Assembly: GCA_050261575.1 (NCBI GenBank) | Contig: JBLNDL010000067.1 | Location: 1-64,000, forward strand | DNA length: 64,000 bases | Source of the DNA: Sphingomonadaceae bacterium | GTDB lineage: Bacteria > Chloroflexota > UBA6077 | Direction: 5' to 3' | In this document: positions 57,001 to 64,000 of the stretch, in pieces | How positions within the stretch are numbered: the stretch's first letter is position 1 | Layout: each line of letters opens with the position of its first letter | Position numbers: made by a program

Positions 57001-60000
57001 TCGATCAGCAGCACCCCCTCCGCATCCACCGGATACCCGGCGCTGGCGCCGCTGGCCTCTATCGCCTCCACGATGGTCCGATCCATGATCTCCAGCGTCG
57101 CCGGAACGATCCCCTCGGCTATCATCTCCGACACGGCGTCCCCAGCATCCTCCAGCCGGCCGAAGATCGCTAGCATCGTCTTGATCGCCTCGGGAGCCCG
57201 CATCAACCTCAGCGCCATGGAGGTCACGACGCCCAGCGTTCCCTCGGAGCCCACCAGCAGTCCGGTCAGGTCGTATCCGGGGGTATCCTCCACCAGACCG
57301 CCGGTGTGCACCACCCGCCCATCGGCCAGCACCACCTCCAGGCCGATCACGTGGTCGGAGGTGATCCCGTACTTCAAGCAGTGGGGTCCGCCTGCGTTCT
57401 CCCCGACGTTGCCGCCGAGCGTCGAGACCTTCTGGCTGGAGGGGTCCGGAGCGAACAGGTAGCCGACGGGGGCCAGGGCGTTCTGGAGGTCCAGGTTCAC
57501 GACGCCCGCCTCCACCACGGCCCGCTCGCTGGCCACGTCGATCTCCAGGATCCGGCTCATGCGTGTGCACACCAGCACCACGCCGCCCGCTTGCGGCACG
57601 GTGCCACCCGACAGGTTGGTGCCGGCCCCCCGCACCACCACTGGAATCCCCTTCCGATGGGCGATCCGCACTACCGCAGCCGCCTCGGCGGCATCCGCTG
57701 GGAAGACCACAGCCAAAGGCTCGGTCTCCCCTCCAGTGGCGTCGTACCGGTAGACCAGCCGGTCCCGCAGGCCGGCGAATAGCCCCTCCCGCCCGACTAC
57801 TCGGGTCAACTCCTCCAAGAGGTCGCTTCTATCCATTGGCCTCCCCAGAACATCATCGGTCACCCCGGCTGCAGACTGCCACGGTCTGGGACGAGAGCGT
57901 CCCCTCTTCCGAGGGGACGGCCAACCGCGAAGGCACCGAGGCACGAAGAAGCGCGAAGACCACTCGGGCCACCTCAGTGTCATTGTGTCTTCGTGGTTCG
58001 GCGCCTCGGCGCACGCGAAAGGGTTCAGCCGTGGCGCTCTCGGGGCAACGAGATTGTACAACGATTCGCCCCCCAGGGCACCGAACGCGTGATGCACGAT
58101 GCCACGCGATGCCTTCAGAGCCCGCGGGCGGCTGTAGGGCGGACCTGCACGCCCGCCCAACCCGGGTGCGGGTAGCGAGGGCGCACACCCAGCGTGACGC
58201 TAGCGGGCACGTGAGGCGAGCGAGCGCGGCCTCACGTGCCCGCCCCCTACGAAAGAGCCGGTGATGCCGATGTGCACCGCGGGCACTGAGGCTATGGCCG
58301 GCACTGGGAGAACTGGCGCATTTCTTGCTGTAGGCACTACTACTAGGAAGCCCCATCATCACCACCCCTAGTCCGTGAGGAGAAGAGACTTGCCCAGAGT
58401 CGAGCCGAGCGCCGCCACCATCTCGCTGGCGATCACCGTCGCCCTGGCGATCCTGATCTACCTCGGTTCGCGCGGCCTGCGCTACTTTGACTCCGCCCTG
58501 ATCGGCTACGCCGTCGCCTCAGTCTTCGCGCTGCTCGGCATCAGCTATCGCTTCCTGCAGTGGCTCTCACGCCCCCCAACCCGTCTGTACTGGTTGCGAG
58601 GCTGGCAGCTATTCCTCTCGTGGGAGAACTTCCGGCGCTTCGGGGGGCTGATCCCACGCGTGCTGTGGCAGAACCAAGCCACCCAGAGCTTCATCCGCCC
58701 CCGCCCCGGTGGCATCTCCCGATGGATCGGTCACCTGAGCCTCTTCTGGGGGGTGGTCCTCTCCGGTCTAATCACCTTCCCCCTGGTTTTCGGGTGGCTG
58801 GTGCTCCGCTCCCCCGGCGGCAGCCTGTACCAGTTGTACTTCTTCGGCTTCCCCACCTTCGTCTTCGAGCCGCGCTCCCTCTTCGGCTGGGTCTTCATCC
58901 ATGCACTGGACTTCACGGCTCTGATGGTCCTGCTGGGGGTTGGCCTGGCGCTACGGCGCCGCTGGCGCGACCGAGAGGTGATAGCCGAGCAGAGCTTCGG
59001 CTTCGACTTCGTGCCGCTGCTGCTGCTGGCTGCCATCTCCATCAGCGGCCTTCTGCTCACCGCCAACAGCCTCTTCTGGGAGGGGCGGTTCTACTGGTTC
59101 GTGTCCCTGGCCCATCAAGCTGTGGTCGTCCTCGGCATCCTGTACATACCGTTCGGCAAGTTCTTCCACATCCTGGAGCGGCCCGCCAGCATCGGCATCG
59201 AGCTGTACCGGGCCGTGGCCGGGCGCGTCGGCGGCGCCCGTTGCGCTCGCTGTGGCCGGGAGTTCGCCTCCAGGCTCTTCGTCGGCGACCTGATACAGAC
59301 CCTGCGCGATCTGAACCAGGACTACGCCATGGAGCCAGACGGACGGCACCTCCAGGAGTACTGCCCGGAATGCAAACGAATCCTCCGCGCCAACAGCTAC
59401 TTCTCCCGAGTCCACAGGGGATTCCTGTAGAGGTCGCAATCGATGTCGGTGGACAAGTTCCTGTATCGGCCAGGGCCGAAGGAATACGACTTCCTCAACC
59501 GGGGGTTCGCGCCGGAGGATTGGACCACCGACGCGCCCATCGACAGGCTGGTGCCCACCCACTGCTGTTTCTGCGGGGTCCAGTGCGCCATGTACCTGAA
59601 GGTCTCGCGCGGGAAGGTGGTGGGGGTCGAGCCTCGGGAGGACTTCCCCGTCAACCAGGGCCGTCTCTGCCCCAAGGGGGTGGTGGCCTACCAGCAGGTC
59701 AATCACCCCGACCGGCTCCTCTACCCCCTTGTCCGTCGCAACGGCCGACTGGAGCGGACCACCTGGGACGAGGCGATGTCGCTGATCGCGGAGCGGATCG
59801 AGACGATCCAGGCCGCCCATGGCAAGGACGCCGTCGCGATGTATGGCGGCTCCTCCCTGACGACGGAGAAGACCTACCTGATCGGCAAGTTCGCCAGGGT
59901 CGCCCTGGGCACCCGCCACTGCGACTACAACGGGCGGCTGTGCATGACCTCGGCTGCCGGCGCCAACCTGCTGGCGTTCAACGTCGACCGGCCGGCCAAT

Positions 60001-63000: not shown

Positions 63001-64000
63001 GCAGCTCTGGCTGCTGACGGTGGCGCTGGATGCTCTGCTGGCCGGCAACCTCGCCGAGACGGCGGGCCTGGCTGTGGCCTCGGGCCTCGCCTTCCTGGGT
63101 TGCCTGGGAGCGCTGTCAGTGGCGCGCCGATGACGCGCGAAAGGGCCCGGACGGAGGCCGATCTCCCCTCCTGGGGGGCGCTGGCGCTGGCCACCGCCGC
63201 CTTCGCCCTCTGCTTCGCCGTGTGGGGCTCGATCGCGCCCCTGGCCCCCAAGTTCGCCCACGTCCTCTCCCTCTCCGCCACCGAGACTGGAGTACTGATC
63301 GCGGTGCCGGTGCTACTGGGCTCCGTCGCCCGCATCCCCACCGGGCTGCTCGCCGACCGCTACGGCGGCAGGCGCGTCTTCACCGGCCTCCTGCTCTTCC
63401 TTCTCCTCCCAGTGGCGCTCATCGGCACCGCCACATCCTACGTTGCGCTCCTCTTCTGGGGCTTCTGGCTGGGAGTGGCCGGAGCATCCTTCTCCGTGGG
63501 CATACCTTACGTGGCCCGCTGGTTCCCGCCGGAGCGGCAGGGCACAGCCCTCGGCATCTACGGTATGGGGAACATAGGCACCGCCCTGGCGGCCTTTCTC
63601 TTCCCATGGATCGCCGCCCGCTTCGGCTGGCCCGCCGCATTCTGGGTCTTCCTTCCGCCCCTCGCCCTCATGGCGGCACTGTTCTGGTTCCTGGGCCGCG
63701 AAGCCCCATGGCCAGCCGGGCCACCTGCCTCCTTCTCCGCCCAGTTCGATCTGATGCGCACCCAACCCCTCACGTGGGCACTCAGCCTCTTCTACTTCGG
63801 CACCTTCGGGGGCTTCGTCGCCCTCTCCATCTACCTCCCCACCTTCCTCGTCCAGGCATACGGACTCGACCTACCGGACGCCGCCGCTCGTGCAGCGGGG
63901 TTCGTGGTGCTGGCCACTCTGGCACGGCCCCTGGGCGGGCTTCTGTCCGACCGAATCGGCGGGGCACGTGTGCTGGATGTGGTGTTCCCCGTAGTCGCAC

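Follow-up and report, generated by a model that had tools for sequence, protein, structure and literature searches.

A run of six co-directional genes in the window (the whole 64,000-nucleotide stretch of DNA analyzed here) encodes what we regard, with somewhat better than even confidence, as a membrane-bound NarGHI-like nitrate reductase of the Nas lineage: the products of five conserved genes, together with the porter NarK, would form an enzyme with a cytoplasmic active site, an energy-conserving quinol loop and a probably dissimilatory role (Table 1). ORF calling placed the genes at contig positions 58390-64320 with intergenic gaps of -4 to 139 nt, re-deriving the tight cluster given in a preliminary description of this DNA, and re-scoring reproduced its Pfam and NCBIfam results. 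The DUF6755 protein scores 33.4 bits against PF20540 (Pfam gathering score 27), and the partial 290 aa of the porter inside the window score 202 bits on the NarK model.

Table 1. Genes of the module and their positions in the window.
Product	Position	Strand	Length	Remarks
Membrane subunit	58390..59430	+	346 aa	Alternative GTG start at 58375
Mo subunit, Nas type, catalytic, Mo-bisPGD	59443..61611	+	722 aa	
FeS subunit, four-cluster	61613..62242	+	209 aa	Alternative GTG start at 61586
Rieske [2Fe-2S] subunit	62382..62897	+	171 aa	
DUF6755 small membrane protein	62900..63133	+	77 aa	Two hydrophobic segments, QLWLLT motif
NarK-type nitrate/nitrite porter	63130..64000	+		Continues past the window to contig position 64320

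Conservation and genomic context of the module

Carrier loci are spread over at least nine phyla, with members in Chloroflexota, Acidobacteriota, Gemmatimonadota, Actinomycetota, Planctomycetota, Verrucomicrobiota, Armatimonadota, Melainabacteria, Dormibacterota and Bacillota. In every one of the 75 loci that leave 600 nt or more for it, the gene immediately 3′ of the membrane gene encodes the Mo subunit. Of the 54 loci where 4.6 kb or more is available, 51 keep the order membrane-Mo-FeS-Rieske, and two (L001 and L075) carry the membrane and Mo genes with no FeS or Rieske gene nearby. Fifty of 55 loci have, behind the Rieske gene, an ORF resembling DUF6755 with two transmembrane (TM) helices; its product would be a fifth, small membrane subunit of the complex. 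NarK is encoded within 10 kb of the module in 30/80 loci; in 11/80, NarK and the membrane subunit form a single in-frame fusion, NarK being the upstream part. Additional fused forms of NarK and the membrane subunit occur among further relatives.

Neighboring genes were grouped into clusters, and the 30 largest were assigned to families by Pfam on one representative each. The recurrent families are ScdA/RIC (20 loci), SLAC1/TehA (15), Crp/FNR (10), HPP (9), and NnrS (7). No NirB or siroheme-type gene was found within 10 kb of the module in any of the 80 loci. At the genome level, this organism carries the module and a canonical narGHJI-narK cluster, whose true NarI scores 227.7 bits on PF02665, and Pyrinomonas carries the module and a complete, separate classical nas cluster. 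NarG was not found in four of five other carriers, nor in any of 13 carriers of the same phylum. A NIR_SIR (siroheme reductase) gene is present in 10 of these 13; it was not found in the remaining three (G108, G132, and G140), nor in two of the five carrier genomes (G002 and G005).

The catalytic subunit and its substrate

The Mo subunit contains the Fe4S4, Molybdopterin and Molydop_binding domains (Pfam), an N-terminal 4Fe-4S motif, and Cys-Met at the Mo-ligand position, a pair that we take to be the Nap/Nas signature; no signal peptide is present. Its best NCBIfam match is NasC (NF047855; 826.5 bits, below the equivalog cut-off of 1100), and module Mo genes from five other genomes score 434-898 bits against this model, all under the cut-off, with the 434-bit row (G003) spanning model positions 218-564 only. 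The narG model gives only 65 bits. The subunit shares its active-site stretches with classical NasC/NarB enzymes, RLCMTSAAG aligning with RFCMSSAAA of a classical NasC. An alignment of about 690 aa gives 51-52% identity with the classical NasC of Pyrinomonas, which is encoded in a sigma54-NasC-NasB-NirB-SUMT cluster. In a quick tree the module Mo subunits form a clade of their own beside the one classical NasC sampled (SH-aLRT 97).

Two other molybdoenzyme classes were considered. The score against the formate dehydrogenase alpha model (TIGR01591) is 617.6 bits, under the cut-off of 666, and in an alignment with the F420-dependent formate dehydrogenase 9t1s_L the Mo subunit has C-M for X-H and T for R (lRGQnN). 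The Sec/Cys-His pair and the catalytic Arg of formate dehydrogenases (FdhH His141 and Arg333) are absent. For arsenite oxidase AioAB, the scores are 164.3 bits vs. a cut-off of 359 for the large subunit and 51.3 vs. 95.65 for the Rieske subunit (TIGR02693/TIGR02694). AioAB and the iodate reductase IdrAB also combine a Mo-bisPGD enzyme with a Tat-signal Rieske subunit, but Aio is periplasmic and has neither a four-cluster subunit nor a membrane heme subunit.

The NasC model as best match, the identity to NasC, the absence of the formate dehydrogenase residues, and the adjacency and fusion of NarK all point to nitrate as the substrate, which places this earlier claim on firmer ground than NasC identity alone. 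The preliminary description had also held that no such enzyme was in print. That statement does not stand, as the NaoABC trio of PMC11521347 (2024) fits this family by description in the passages of that article covered. These present a Mo / 4Fe-4S / TM-Rieske trio, called an antimonite oxidase and "nitrate-dependent antimony oxidase", from two clusters with the order Mo / 4Fe-4S / Rieske and a Rieske protein with an N-terminal TM helix. NaoA is placed nearest NapA (in a tree without Nas), NaoB nearest DmsB, and NaoC nearest AioB; the 5.5- and 6.7-kb fragments that were cloned include further "hypothetical" ORFs; antimonite oxidation was seen after heterologous expression; and the Mo and FeS subunits are drawn in the periplasm with the Rieske helix as anchor. 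The same passages are silent on the membrane protein, on DUF6755, and on NarK, and they report no assay of nitrate reduction by Nao itself. By gene order and named relatives, NaoABC is likely identical to the Mo-FeS-Rieske trio described here, although the substrate, direction, and topology claimed there differ from ours.

As described in that part of PMC11521347, the Mo subunit would oxidize Sb(III) and pass electrons through the FeS and Rieske proteins to quinone, a separate NarGHI would reduce nitrate, and Mo and FeS would be periplasmic. The shared gene order and TM-anchored Rieske protein fit this account, as do the nearest relatives, which agree with the NCBIfam rows found here (DmsB among the best for FeS, AioB the best for Rieske), the extra ORFs, in fragments whose size would accommodate the membrane gene together with DUF6755, and the presence of narGHJI in this genome. 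We nevertheless judge it very unlikely for the module: Sb(III) oxidation offers no role for NarK adjacency (30/80) or in-frame fusion (11/80), the Mo subunit shares 51-52% identity and its active-site stretches with a classical NasC, the neighbors are nitrite/NO-stress genes with no ars- or aio-type gene among the 30 largest recurrent clusters, and the FeS protein lies on the cytoplasmic side in the complex model (below). NarG was not found in 4/5 and 13/13 of the other carriers, so a Nao-quinol-Nar chain would not be general. The evidence thus favors nitrate over antimonite.

The membrane subunit

The 346-aa membrane subunit has six predicted TM helices with both termini inside, a PFGKFFH motif, and a C-terminal Cys4 knuckle (C285, C288, C325, and C328) on the inner face. 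H115 and H260 are placed near the inner face, and H171 and H242 near the outer one, by the positive-inside rule together with the helices of the AF2 model. These four His and four Cys, earlier claimed to be invariant, are so in 18/18 diverse sequences, and in the larger set of the window plus 80 loci all are kept in 81/81 except H171 (80/81). The protein would most likely hold two hemes b, one near each face. About 140 conserved residues, the Cys4 knuckle included, lie on its Arg-rich inner side.

On re-check, the protein proved as bare of annotation as had been described. It matched no Pfam family at E ≤ 0.01, and the gathering score of PF02665 (NarI / Nitrate_red_gam) was not reached; its sole NCBIfam match is the C-terminal heme-b part of QmoC (E 7.3e-6, 25.7 bits vs. 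a cut-off of 300). There are 1755 homologs at E ≤ 1e-5 among 8000 scored candidates, and among the 120 listed one has a Pfam domain, the names being "hypothetical" or "MFS transporter". One Atlas cluster of relatives has PF02665 in 22% of its members, and some JGI records call relatives "nitrate reductase gamma subunit".

A new AF2 model (pLDDT 86.4, pTM 0.77) gave the same outcome in Foldseek as reported before, with no PDB match at E ≤ 1e-3 and weak matches to EtfD (9ojn, E 0.086, prob 1.0) and NarI (1y5i_C, E 0.22, prob 0.96). Diheme-b membrane proteins led the VIA-align comparison, whose top rows were EtfD (Z 11.2), NarI (11.0), CybB (10.7), NOX5 (8.5), HyaC (8.4), and FdnI (7.8). Fold Z-scores of helical bundles are convincing from about 13, and the comparison with NarI 1q16_C (Z 11.0, rmsd 4.6, 178/224 residues) lies below this value. 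A sequence profile of the subunit found no solved NarI. The NarI-like heme-b anchors of the HdrE/DsrM/QmoC/EtfD family, which provide the only sequence-level match (QmoC) and the best fold row (EtfD), also pass electrons to cytoplasmic FeS partners, but they pair with CCG-domain (HdrD-like) proteins, in contrast to the FdnH/DmsB-like partner and Cys4 knuckle found here.

The FeS and Rieske subunits and a model of the complex

The FeS subunit (69.4 bits against PF13247, DmsB among its best NCBIfam rows) has neither a signal peptide nor a TM helix, and 16 Cys that are invariant or nearly so in 22 sequences form four Cys groups for four clusters. The Rieske protein (41.8 bits against PF00355) consists of a conserved cytoplasmic N-terminal segment, a TRRDYL twin-arginine motif, one TM helix, and CTHLAC...CPCH. 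Residues C112, H114, C117, C130, C132, and H133, the cluster ligands and both disulfide Cys among them, and R35-R36 are invariant in 23/23 aligned proteins, bearing out the invariant twin-arginine motif claimed previously. The RR motif followed by a hydrophobic stretch occurs in 55 of 56 Rieske ORFs, 55 ORFs hold both motifs, and a TatC gene is present in this genome. AioB is the best NCBIfam row (51.3 bits vs. the cut-off of 95.65), NirD gave no row in this scoring, and the closest solved chains are the b6f, Thermus, and AioB Rieske proteins. By sequence, the module has a bc/Aio-type Rieske protein with a Tat signal-anchor.

A three-chain model of the membrane, FeS, and Rieske proteins reached ipSAE values of 0.60/0.82/0.81 (median 0.81; best of three controls 0.00), with at least 72% of contacts common to runs and partner pLDDT of at least 74. 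The mark used, passed by 116/157 solved complexes and 2/215 mismatched pairs, is calibrated only roughly for this case of own alignments and three chains, and the score is the confidence of the model itself, built without cofactors or membrane. In the model, Rieske residues 18-31, before the RR motif, contact FeS residues 62-83; residues 37-56 contact TM2 and TM6 of the membrane subunit; and the cluster loops 110-120, 131-135, and 146-150 contact membrane-subunit residues 138-147, 161-162, 170, and 223-239. The model puts the Rieske cluster tip outside, close to H171/H242, and the N-terminus beside the FeS protein on the inner face.

Signal peptides were absent from 23/23 Mo and 23/23 FeS N-termini read by eye, and the Arg-rich loops and C-terminal domain of the membrane protein are directed inward by sequence. 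Together with the contact between FeS and the pre-RR part of the Rieske protein, these features argue for cytoplasmic FeS and Mo subunits. The preliminary reading of one conserved complex, with Rieske outside, FeS/Mo inside, and a NarI-like four-His link, is strengthened by the synteny (51/54), the NarK fusions, the ipSAE of 0.81, and the fold matches.

The opposite topology, in which Mo and FeS would leave the cytoplasm as hitch-hikers of the Rieske Tat signal and nitrate would be reduced outside in a Q-cycle-like scheme of membrane and Rieske proteins, has precedents: AioA rides on AioB for Tat export, and a Q-cycle-like scheme has been put forward for the NarB/NarC proteins of archaeal pNar. 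Hitch-hiking partners typically lack a signal of their own, and four-cluster proteins of the FdnH/DmsB/HybA kind are mostly oriented outward. The strict conservation of the Tat motif, AioB as best NCBIfam row, and the periplasmic placement in the covered part of the Nao paper (PMC11521347) agree with such export. We hold it to be the least probable of the alternatives, far from likely, as NarK fusions and adjacency point to substrate delivery in the cytoplasm, the membrane protein has its conserved, Arg-rich side with the Cys4 knuckle on the inside, and the modeled FeS contact is to a segment of the Rieske protein that stays cytoplasmic.

Proposed electron route and comparison with known systems

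The gene content, conservation, motifs, fusions, and predicted contacts lead us to infer a route in which hemes, quinol as donor, inward direction, and energy coupling would be as follows. The FeS protein would dock on the inner face of the six-helix NarI-like membrane protein and feed the Nas-lineage catalytic subunit from its four clusters in the cytoplasm. The Tat-inserted Rieske protein would run its helix along TM2/TM6, with its tip outside by the outer heme site and its N-terminal tail on FeS. (Mena)quinol would be oxidized at an outer-face site made of the Rieske tip and the outer-heme region, releasing protons outside, and electrons would cross the membrane through two hemes to the FeS chain and the Mo center. 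NarK, adjacent or fused to the membrane subunit, would bring nitrate in and take nitrite out, and the complex would conserve energy as a redox loop, serving respiration or redox balancing in a dissimilatory role.

Like NarGHI of E. coli (1q16), the module has a Mo subunit, predicted to face the cytoplasm, that carries an FS0 cluster, along with a four-cluster FeS protein, a four-His membrane subunit of possibly NarI-like fold (Z 11.0), and a NarK partner, and redox-loop logic is expected. It differs in its Nas-type catalytic subunit (about 720 aa vs. about 1250 aa for NarG), its short FeS subunit (209 aa vs. about 500 aa for NarH), and a membrane protein that, unlike NarI, has six helices, a large inner loop, and the Cys4 knuckle; it has no NarJ gene and adds Rieske and DUF6755. 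Several observations sit uneasily beside the proposed reading. NarI needs no Rieske protein, so strict Rieske conservation is unexplained by a plain NarGHI analogy, and transfer from a high-potential Rieske center to lower-potential hemes is uphill. The Mo subunit falls below the NasC cut-off, PF02665 failed, and the fold Z is about 11. The sole publication on a matching gene trio, in the part covered, reports antimonite oxidation (PMC11521347).

With bc1/b6f complexes the module shares a Tat-inserted Rieske protein with CTHLxC...CPCH and disulfide, and a Rieske tip predicted to dock from outside on a putatively diheme membrane protein, as in the "b position" at the Qo site. Unlike in bc1/b6f, the membrane partner falls outside the PF00033 cytochrome b family, cytochrome c1/f is missing, and a Qi site is not evident; no PF00033 protein was found in the operon or among the recurrent neighbor clusters. 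The haloarchaeal pNar locus holds Rieske/cytochrome b genes, NarB/NarC, with its nitrate reductase. Such genes also occur in the Caldithrix nap cluster (PMC5317091) and, in the passages covered, are linked to nitrate reduction in Campylobacter Qcr-Nap (PMC6195509; see also the covered parts of PMC2483277 and PMC3509893). The pNar, Caldithrix, and Campylobacter reductases are periplasmic, whereas that of the module is predicted to be cytoplasmic.

Alternatively, the Rieske protein could be an electron entry port, receiving electrons from a periplasmic carrier (cytochrome c or cupredoxin) or from a separate Rieske/cytochrome b complex or ACIII, with cytoplasmic nitrate reduction unchanged. Aio-type Rieske centers exchange electrons with soluble carriers, and the Rieske protein here is of the bc/Aio kind. 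NarI oxidizes quinol without a Rieske protein, so the Rieske protein here may add a different input. At L048, the genes after a canonical narGHJ encode a NarI-Rieske fusion and a bc-type cytochrome b, indicating that a Rieske protein wired to a NarI-type heme protein recurs. A further precedent is Streptomyces Nar1, which, in the part of PMC7931247 covered, depends on and co-purifies with the bcc-aa3 supercomplex. Electrons would then pass from Rieske to the outer heme, and nitrate reduction would draw on the high-potential chain. We consider this unlikely, if the most plausible of the alternatives: the 30 largest recurrent neighbor clusters include neither a cytochrome c nor a cupredoxin gene, the roughly 170 mV from a c-type carrier to nitrate (an estimate from textbook potentials) barely pays for moving electrons inward against the membrane potential, and in the complex model the Rieske tip is pinned to the membrane subunit, although a mobile head is possible.

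Physiological role

The lack of a linked nitrite reductase, the NO-stress neighbors, and coexistence with separate nas or nar clusters indicate that the role of the proposed quinol-fed nitrate reductase is probably dissimilatory rather than assimilatory. Classical Nas enzymes are soluble proteins that receive their electrons from NAD(P)H-linked flavoproteins or ferredoxin/flavodoxin and whose genes share operons with nirBD or nirA, in contrast to the membrane-bound partners of the module and its lack of a linked nitrite reductase. A Rieske-type partner of Nas has a precedent in the ferredoxin NasG of Paracoccus (Gates 2011, as cited in the covered part of PMC3475470), but the Rieske protein of the module is Tat-anchored and bc/Aio-like with a disulfide, not NirD-like.

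The same architecture might instead serve assimilation, perhaps in many hosts, as a quinol-fed Nas giving nitrite to NirB/NirA in hosts without the usual NAD(P)H or ferredoxin donors. The Mo subunit is of Nas lineage, its gene is the only Nas-like gene in this genome, a C-terminal NirB fragment lies at a contig edge here, 10/13 carriers of the phylum have NIR_SIR and 0/13 have NarG, and the Pyrinomonas gene is counted as an assimilatory nitrate reductase in the covered part of PMC5900883. Set against this are the absence of a nitrite reductase within 10 kb in 80/80 loci, the complete separate nas cluster that Pyrinomonas already has, the five carriers in which NIR_SIR was not found (G002, G005, G108, G132, and G140), and the NO-stress and FNR-type neighbors, and we regard assimilation as quite unlikely. 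The module most likely represents a widespread and barely studied nitrate reductase, one that genome surveys now label as an assimilatory enzyme plus a transporter.

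Gene organization of the module

Coordinates and gaps were re-read and bore out the six-gene plus-strand operon of the preliminary description, whose gene table was reproduced with Pfam and NCBIfam. The genes, separated by gaps of -4 to 139 nt, encode a membrane protein, a molybdopterin (Mo) subunit, an FeS protein, a Rieske protein, DUF6755 and NarK. The operon stops after NarK and is followed by a 3-hydroxyisobutyrate-dehydrogenase-like gene on the opposite strand and then mutS2. Upstream, also on the opposite strand, lie a gene for a GlcD-like FAD oxidase and then a CooS/CooF/flavoprotein set, which comprises a CooS-type Ni-CO dehydrogenase (Prismane/CODH family, 552 bits), a CooF-like FeS protein and a pyridine-nucleotide-disulfide oxidoreductase. 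In the divergent intergenic stretch that separates the operon from the FAD oxidase gene there is a perfect inverted repeat, with CACGTG as its core and arms 11 nt apart, that may be an operator. A simple scan of 58100-64000 returned no promoter or terminator sites, a result that carries no information at 66% GC.

Positions of the operon genes and of other loci discussed in the text
Feature	Position	Strand	Length
Membrane protein gene	58390-59430	+	346 aa
Mo subunit gene	59443-61611	+	722 aa
FeS protein gene	61613-62242	+	209 aa
Rieske protein gene	62382-62897	+	171 aa
DUF6755 gene	62900-63133	+	77 aa
NarK gene	63130 to contig position 64320 (past window end)	+	
CooS/CooF/flavoprotein set	52190-56008	-	
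Inverted repeat (candidate operator)	58203-58217 / 58229-58243		15 nt per arm
Canonical nar set, own genome (L090)	G000:C93:54000-72000		
DsrAB-type pairs, own genome	G000:C14:24025-26275 and G000:C12:6346-8651		
Molybdopterin enzyme genes with in-frame TGA, own genome	G000:C18:15997-17256, G000:C6:44495-45859		
Classical nas cluster, Pyrinomonas K22 (L093)	G001:C1:8000-27999		
NarI-Rieske ORF, Obscuribacterales MAG	L048:3678-5096		472 aa
narG(part)-narH-narJ, same locus	L048:3-3723		
bc-type cytochrome b gene, same locus	L048:5093-6193		
NarK-membrane fusion, same locus	L048:8771-10981		
Split or frame-shifted module genes, Holophagales MAG	L053:11099-14298		

Distribution, gene order and NarK fusions

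When each species was scanned by pattern in one genome, at least 580 relatives were confirmed, and at least 6340 protein clusters match at E<=1e-30. Among the at least 580 candidate stretches from species-representative genomes, most carriers come from phyla typical of soil, Acidobacteriota, Chloroflexota, Gemmatimonadota and Actinomycetota among them; the best 80 loci, on which our locus counts are based, span at least nine phyla. Cultured carriers include Pyrinomonas methylaliphatogenes K22 and Dictyobacter kobayashii. In these best 80 of at least 580 loci, the Mo gene directly follows the membrane gene wherever there is room (75/75), the order membrane-Mo-FeS-Rieske is kept in 51 of the 54 loci whose downstream stretch measures 4.6 kb or more, and a two-helix ORF with a QLWLL(T/S)AT motif comes after the Rieske gene in 50 of 55. 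One exception to this order, L070, is rearranged with every gene present; at the others, L001 and L075, the FeS and Rieske genes were not found. At L053, from a Holophagales MAG, every one of the matches to Mo, FeS and Rieske is either split or frame-shifted, which suggests a decayed copy or assembly errors.

Within the window's phylum the membrane gene is present in 15 of 151 sampled genomes (14 of 150 if genome G031 is left out), and in only one of eight genomes from the same order as the window's organism. Phyla are intermixed in a quick tree of Mo subunits, pointing to lateral spread of the module; the tree holds one classical NasC, so that separation of the module's clade from NasC is weakly sampled.

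NarK is encoded within 10 kb in 30 of the best 80 loci (of at least 580), and in 11 of the 80 NarK and the membrane protein are joined in one reading frame, about 730-790 aa long (L045, L047, L048, L052, L053, L055, L060, L063, L069, L071 and L080). These fusion loci span five phyla (Acidobacteriota, Melainabacteria, Actinomycetota, Dormibacterota and Verrucomicrobiota), and the six that the Mo-subunit tree covers group there in one clade. The records of relatives and clusters suggest that the "MFS transporter" label on the unfused membrane protein probably stems from such fusions. Other recurrent neighbours in the best 80 of at least 580 loci, named by Pfam on one representative per cluster, are ScdA/RIC (20 loci), a SLAC1/TehA-type anion channel (15), Crp/FNR (10), HPP (9), NnrS with DUF1858 (7) and hemerythrin (7), and none of these 80 loci has a NirB/siroheme-type gene within 10 kb.

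The membrane protein, a putative diheme-b anchor

No Pfam family covers the membrane protein, and in NCBIfam it matches QmoC alone, in the haem-b part, at 25.7 bits where the cut-off is 300. The four His and four Cys residues previously described as invariant were found in 18/18 diverse homologues, and in a set of 81 sequences each was kept throughout apart from H171, kept in 80. The AF2 model has six long helices (pLDDT 86.4), with the Arg-rich parts (57-112, 189-206 and the C-terminal 86 residues, including the Cys4 knuckle) on one side. By the positive-inside rule this side would be cytoplasmic, which would put H171 and H242 near the outer face and H115 and H260 near the inner face.

Foldseek against the PDB gave no row at E<=1e-3. 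A structural search against representatives ranked EtfD (Z 11.2), NarI (Z 11.0) and CybB (Z 10.7) highest, followed by NOX5, HyaC and FdnI; all are transmembrane diheme-b proteins, at Z scores below the level convincing for helical bundles. A profile of the membrane family detected no solved relative among PDB sequences, the best match (E 0.5) being to an unrelated protein. PF02665 is annotated on 22% of the members of one Atlas cluster of close look-alikes, some relatives are named "nitrate reductase gamma subunit" in JGI records, and PF27541 is precomputed on two relatives. In our reading, the protein works like the NarI/HdrE-type anchors and, by the curated test, is not a PF02665 member.

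The Mo subunit and its probable substrate

The Mo subunit scores best with the NasC family, at 826.5 bits where the equivalog cut-off is 1100, and its closest solved relatives are formate dehydrogenases and Desulfovibrio desulfuricans NapA. A Sec/Cys-His pair and an Arg are essential for formate dehydrogenase; in the printed alignment the Mo subunit has Cys-Met at the former and Thr at the latter position, and formate was therefore rejected as substrate. On these residues, together with the NarK links, the reading as a formate dehydrogenase was rejected in spite of the Fdh-alpha match (617 bits) and the solved relatives. Elsewhere in the window's genome, two molybdopterin enzyme genes with one in-frame TGA each fit selenocysteine-type formate dehydrogenases.

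Pyrinomonas methylaliphatogenes K22 carries, on a contig other than that of its module, a textbook classical nas cluster with genes for a sigma54 activator, a NasC-like protein, a NasB-like flavoprotein, NirB, an unannotated 529-aa ORF and a uroporphyrin (siroheme) methylase. This classical NasC is 52% identical to the K22 module Mo subunit and 51% to that of the window, and it has active-site stretches in common with the module Mo subunits. NarG was not found in K22. Nitrate is the likely substrate of the module.

A different function has been assigned to a similar gene set. Within our full-text search, PMC11521347 alone describes a Mo/FeS/Rieske trio; its available text reports that a Symbiobacteriaceae MAG has Mo, 4Fe-4S and TM-Rieske genes in two clusters, names them NaoABC, an antimonite oxidase, and places NaoAB in the periplasm. 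It also reports nitrate-dependent Sb(V) formation, growth and 13C uptake for R. palustris carrying narGHI. The NaoABC description, as distinct from its sequences, fits the module family, yet that the module is an antimonite oxidase seems improbable to us: the NarK fusions, the NasC-level identity of the Mo subunit, the nitrite/NO-stress neighbours and the carriers without NarG all make nitrate reduction the better fit. Searches of full-text literature outside subscription journals found neither the membrane subunit nor the five-gene module nor the NarK fusion described, and no paper on "DUF6755".

The Rieske protein and the predicted complex

No signal peptide was seen by eye at the N-termini of 23 Mo subunits and 23 FeS proteins. 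A separate FeS alignment leaves out L069, for a stop-codon error. The Rieske protein has one helix, and its RR motif, CTHLxC...CPCH and both disulfide cysteines are invariant in 23/23 sequences; the RR and Rieske motifs occur together in 55 of 56 Rieske ORFs. Among solved proteins it is closest to the Rieske proteins of the b6f/bc and AioB kinds, and the genome has a gene for TatC. On its RR motif, TM helix and disulfide cysteines, the reading as a NasG/NirD-like cytoplasmic Rieske protein was rejected.

Complex prediction was carried out as one job, in which the membrane, FeS and Rieske proteins each entered as an alignment and the Rieske protein was the scored partner. The ipSAE values were 0.60, 0.82 and 0.81 (median 0.81 vs. 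0.00 for the best of three controls), with at least 72% of contacts common to runs and partner pLDDT of at least 74; the ipSAE mark, reached by 116/157 solved complexes and 2/215 mismatched pairs, is a rough guide here, the job being unlike the calibration. Confident contacts in the model place the Rieske helix on TM2 and TM6 of the membrane protein. The Rieske cluster loops touch outer loop 138-147, residue 170 and residues 223-239, beside H171/H242, and the N-terminal segment 18-31, which must be cytoplasmic because it lies ahead of the RR motif, rests on FeS residues 62-83. To our knowledge, there is no solved complex of this sort for the prediction to reproduce. The model (ipSAE 0.81) supports the earlier proposal of one membrane complex with the Rieske protein outside and the FeS protein inside, the three proteins being predicted to bind in this layout.

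In an Obscuribacterales MAG (L048), one ORF joins NarI (PF02665, 198 bits), an internal RRQF-helix and a Rieske domain, so that a Rieske protein with a NarI-type membrane protein recurs. This ORF follows canonical narG(part)-narH-narJ and is itself followed by a gene for a bc-type cytochrome b (PF00033), and the module's NarK-membrane fusion lies just downstream.

Proposed mechanism

The module is a real feature and probably a new variant among membrane-bound Mo nitrate reductases, whose mechanism we infer in part. In a NarGHI-like redox loop, quinol would be oxidized at the outer face, electrons would pass inward over the two putative haems of the membrane protein, the four-cluster protein and FS0 would hand them on to Mo, and NarK would exchange nitrate and nitrite. 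The strictly conserved Rieske centre is the element that this scheme leaves unexplained. A Qo-like site between the Rieske tip and the outer haem would be the most economical idea; a rival idea makes the Rieske centre an entry port for high-potential periplasmic donors. We think it unlikely that the complex is a bifurcating quinol oxidase of novel construction, which would send one electron of each quinol to the Rieske centre and the other via the two haems b to cytoplasmic nitrate reduction. In that doubtful case the Rieske branch would lead, as at the bc1 Qo site, to periplasmic cytochrome c or a periplasmic cupredoxin and on to NirK, Nor, Nos or an oxidase; the haem-b branch, just as doubtfully, would end in nitrate and not in a Qi site, nitrate standing in for the internal sink of the Q-cycle. 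If bifurcation were true, one enzyme would serve both the first and later steps of denitrification. Functional precedents, in the available text of two papers, are Rieske/cytochrome b genes within nap loci (PMC5317091) and the Nar1-bcc link in Streptomyces (PMC7931247).

Physiological role and implications

The window's genome also has a canonical narGHJI, in which narG scores 1525.8 bits; genes for an MFS porter and a YwiC-like protein come after it. Because this set and its own porter exist besides the module, the organism has two separate candidate nitrate reductase systems, with a porter for each. A NirB fragment lies at a contig edge of the same genome. In five other carriers, NarG was found in one and an NIR_SIR gene in three; in the 13 carriers of the window's phylum the numbers found were none and ten, respectively. 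The module is thus seen alongside classical Nas or classical Nar, or by itself. We read it as a functional type of its own, dissimilatory more likely than not, which may serve assimilation in some hosts. In this Chloroflexota genome, DsrA and DsrB score above the NCBIfam cut-offs, at 569 and 518 bits, and a second DsrAB-like pair, at 227 and 271 bits, is more distant.

Parts of the module are currently labelled "assimilatory nitrate reductase" and "MFS transporter", so that nitrogen-cycle surveys that rely on genes would book it under assimilation or overlook it. In the available text of PMC5900883, the Pyrinomonas gene is counted as an assimilatory reductase, and some Acidobacteria are reported to turn nitrate into nitrite without narG or napA, with only "nasA" in the genome. 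The module, if those particular strains carry it, may be an answer to this puzzle. The antimonite-oxidase label of NaoABC, the sole published function, needs re-testing. If our reading is right, the module would be a further architectural class of bacterial nitrate reductase besides Nar, Nap and Nas, and its pairing of a Rieske protein with a NarI-type membrane protein bears on the origin of Rieske-based quinol sites.
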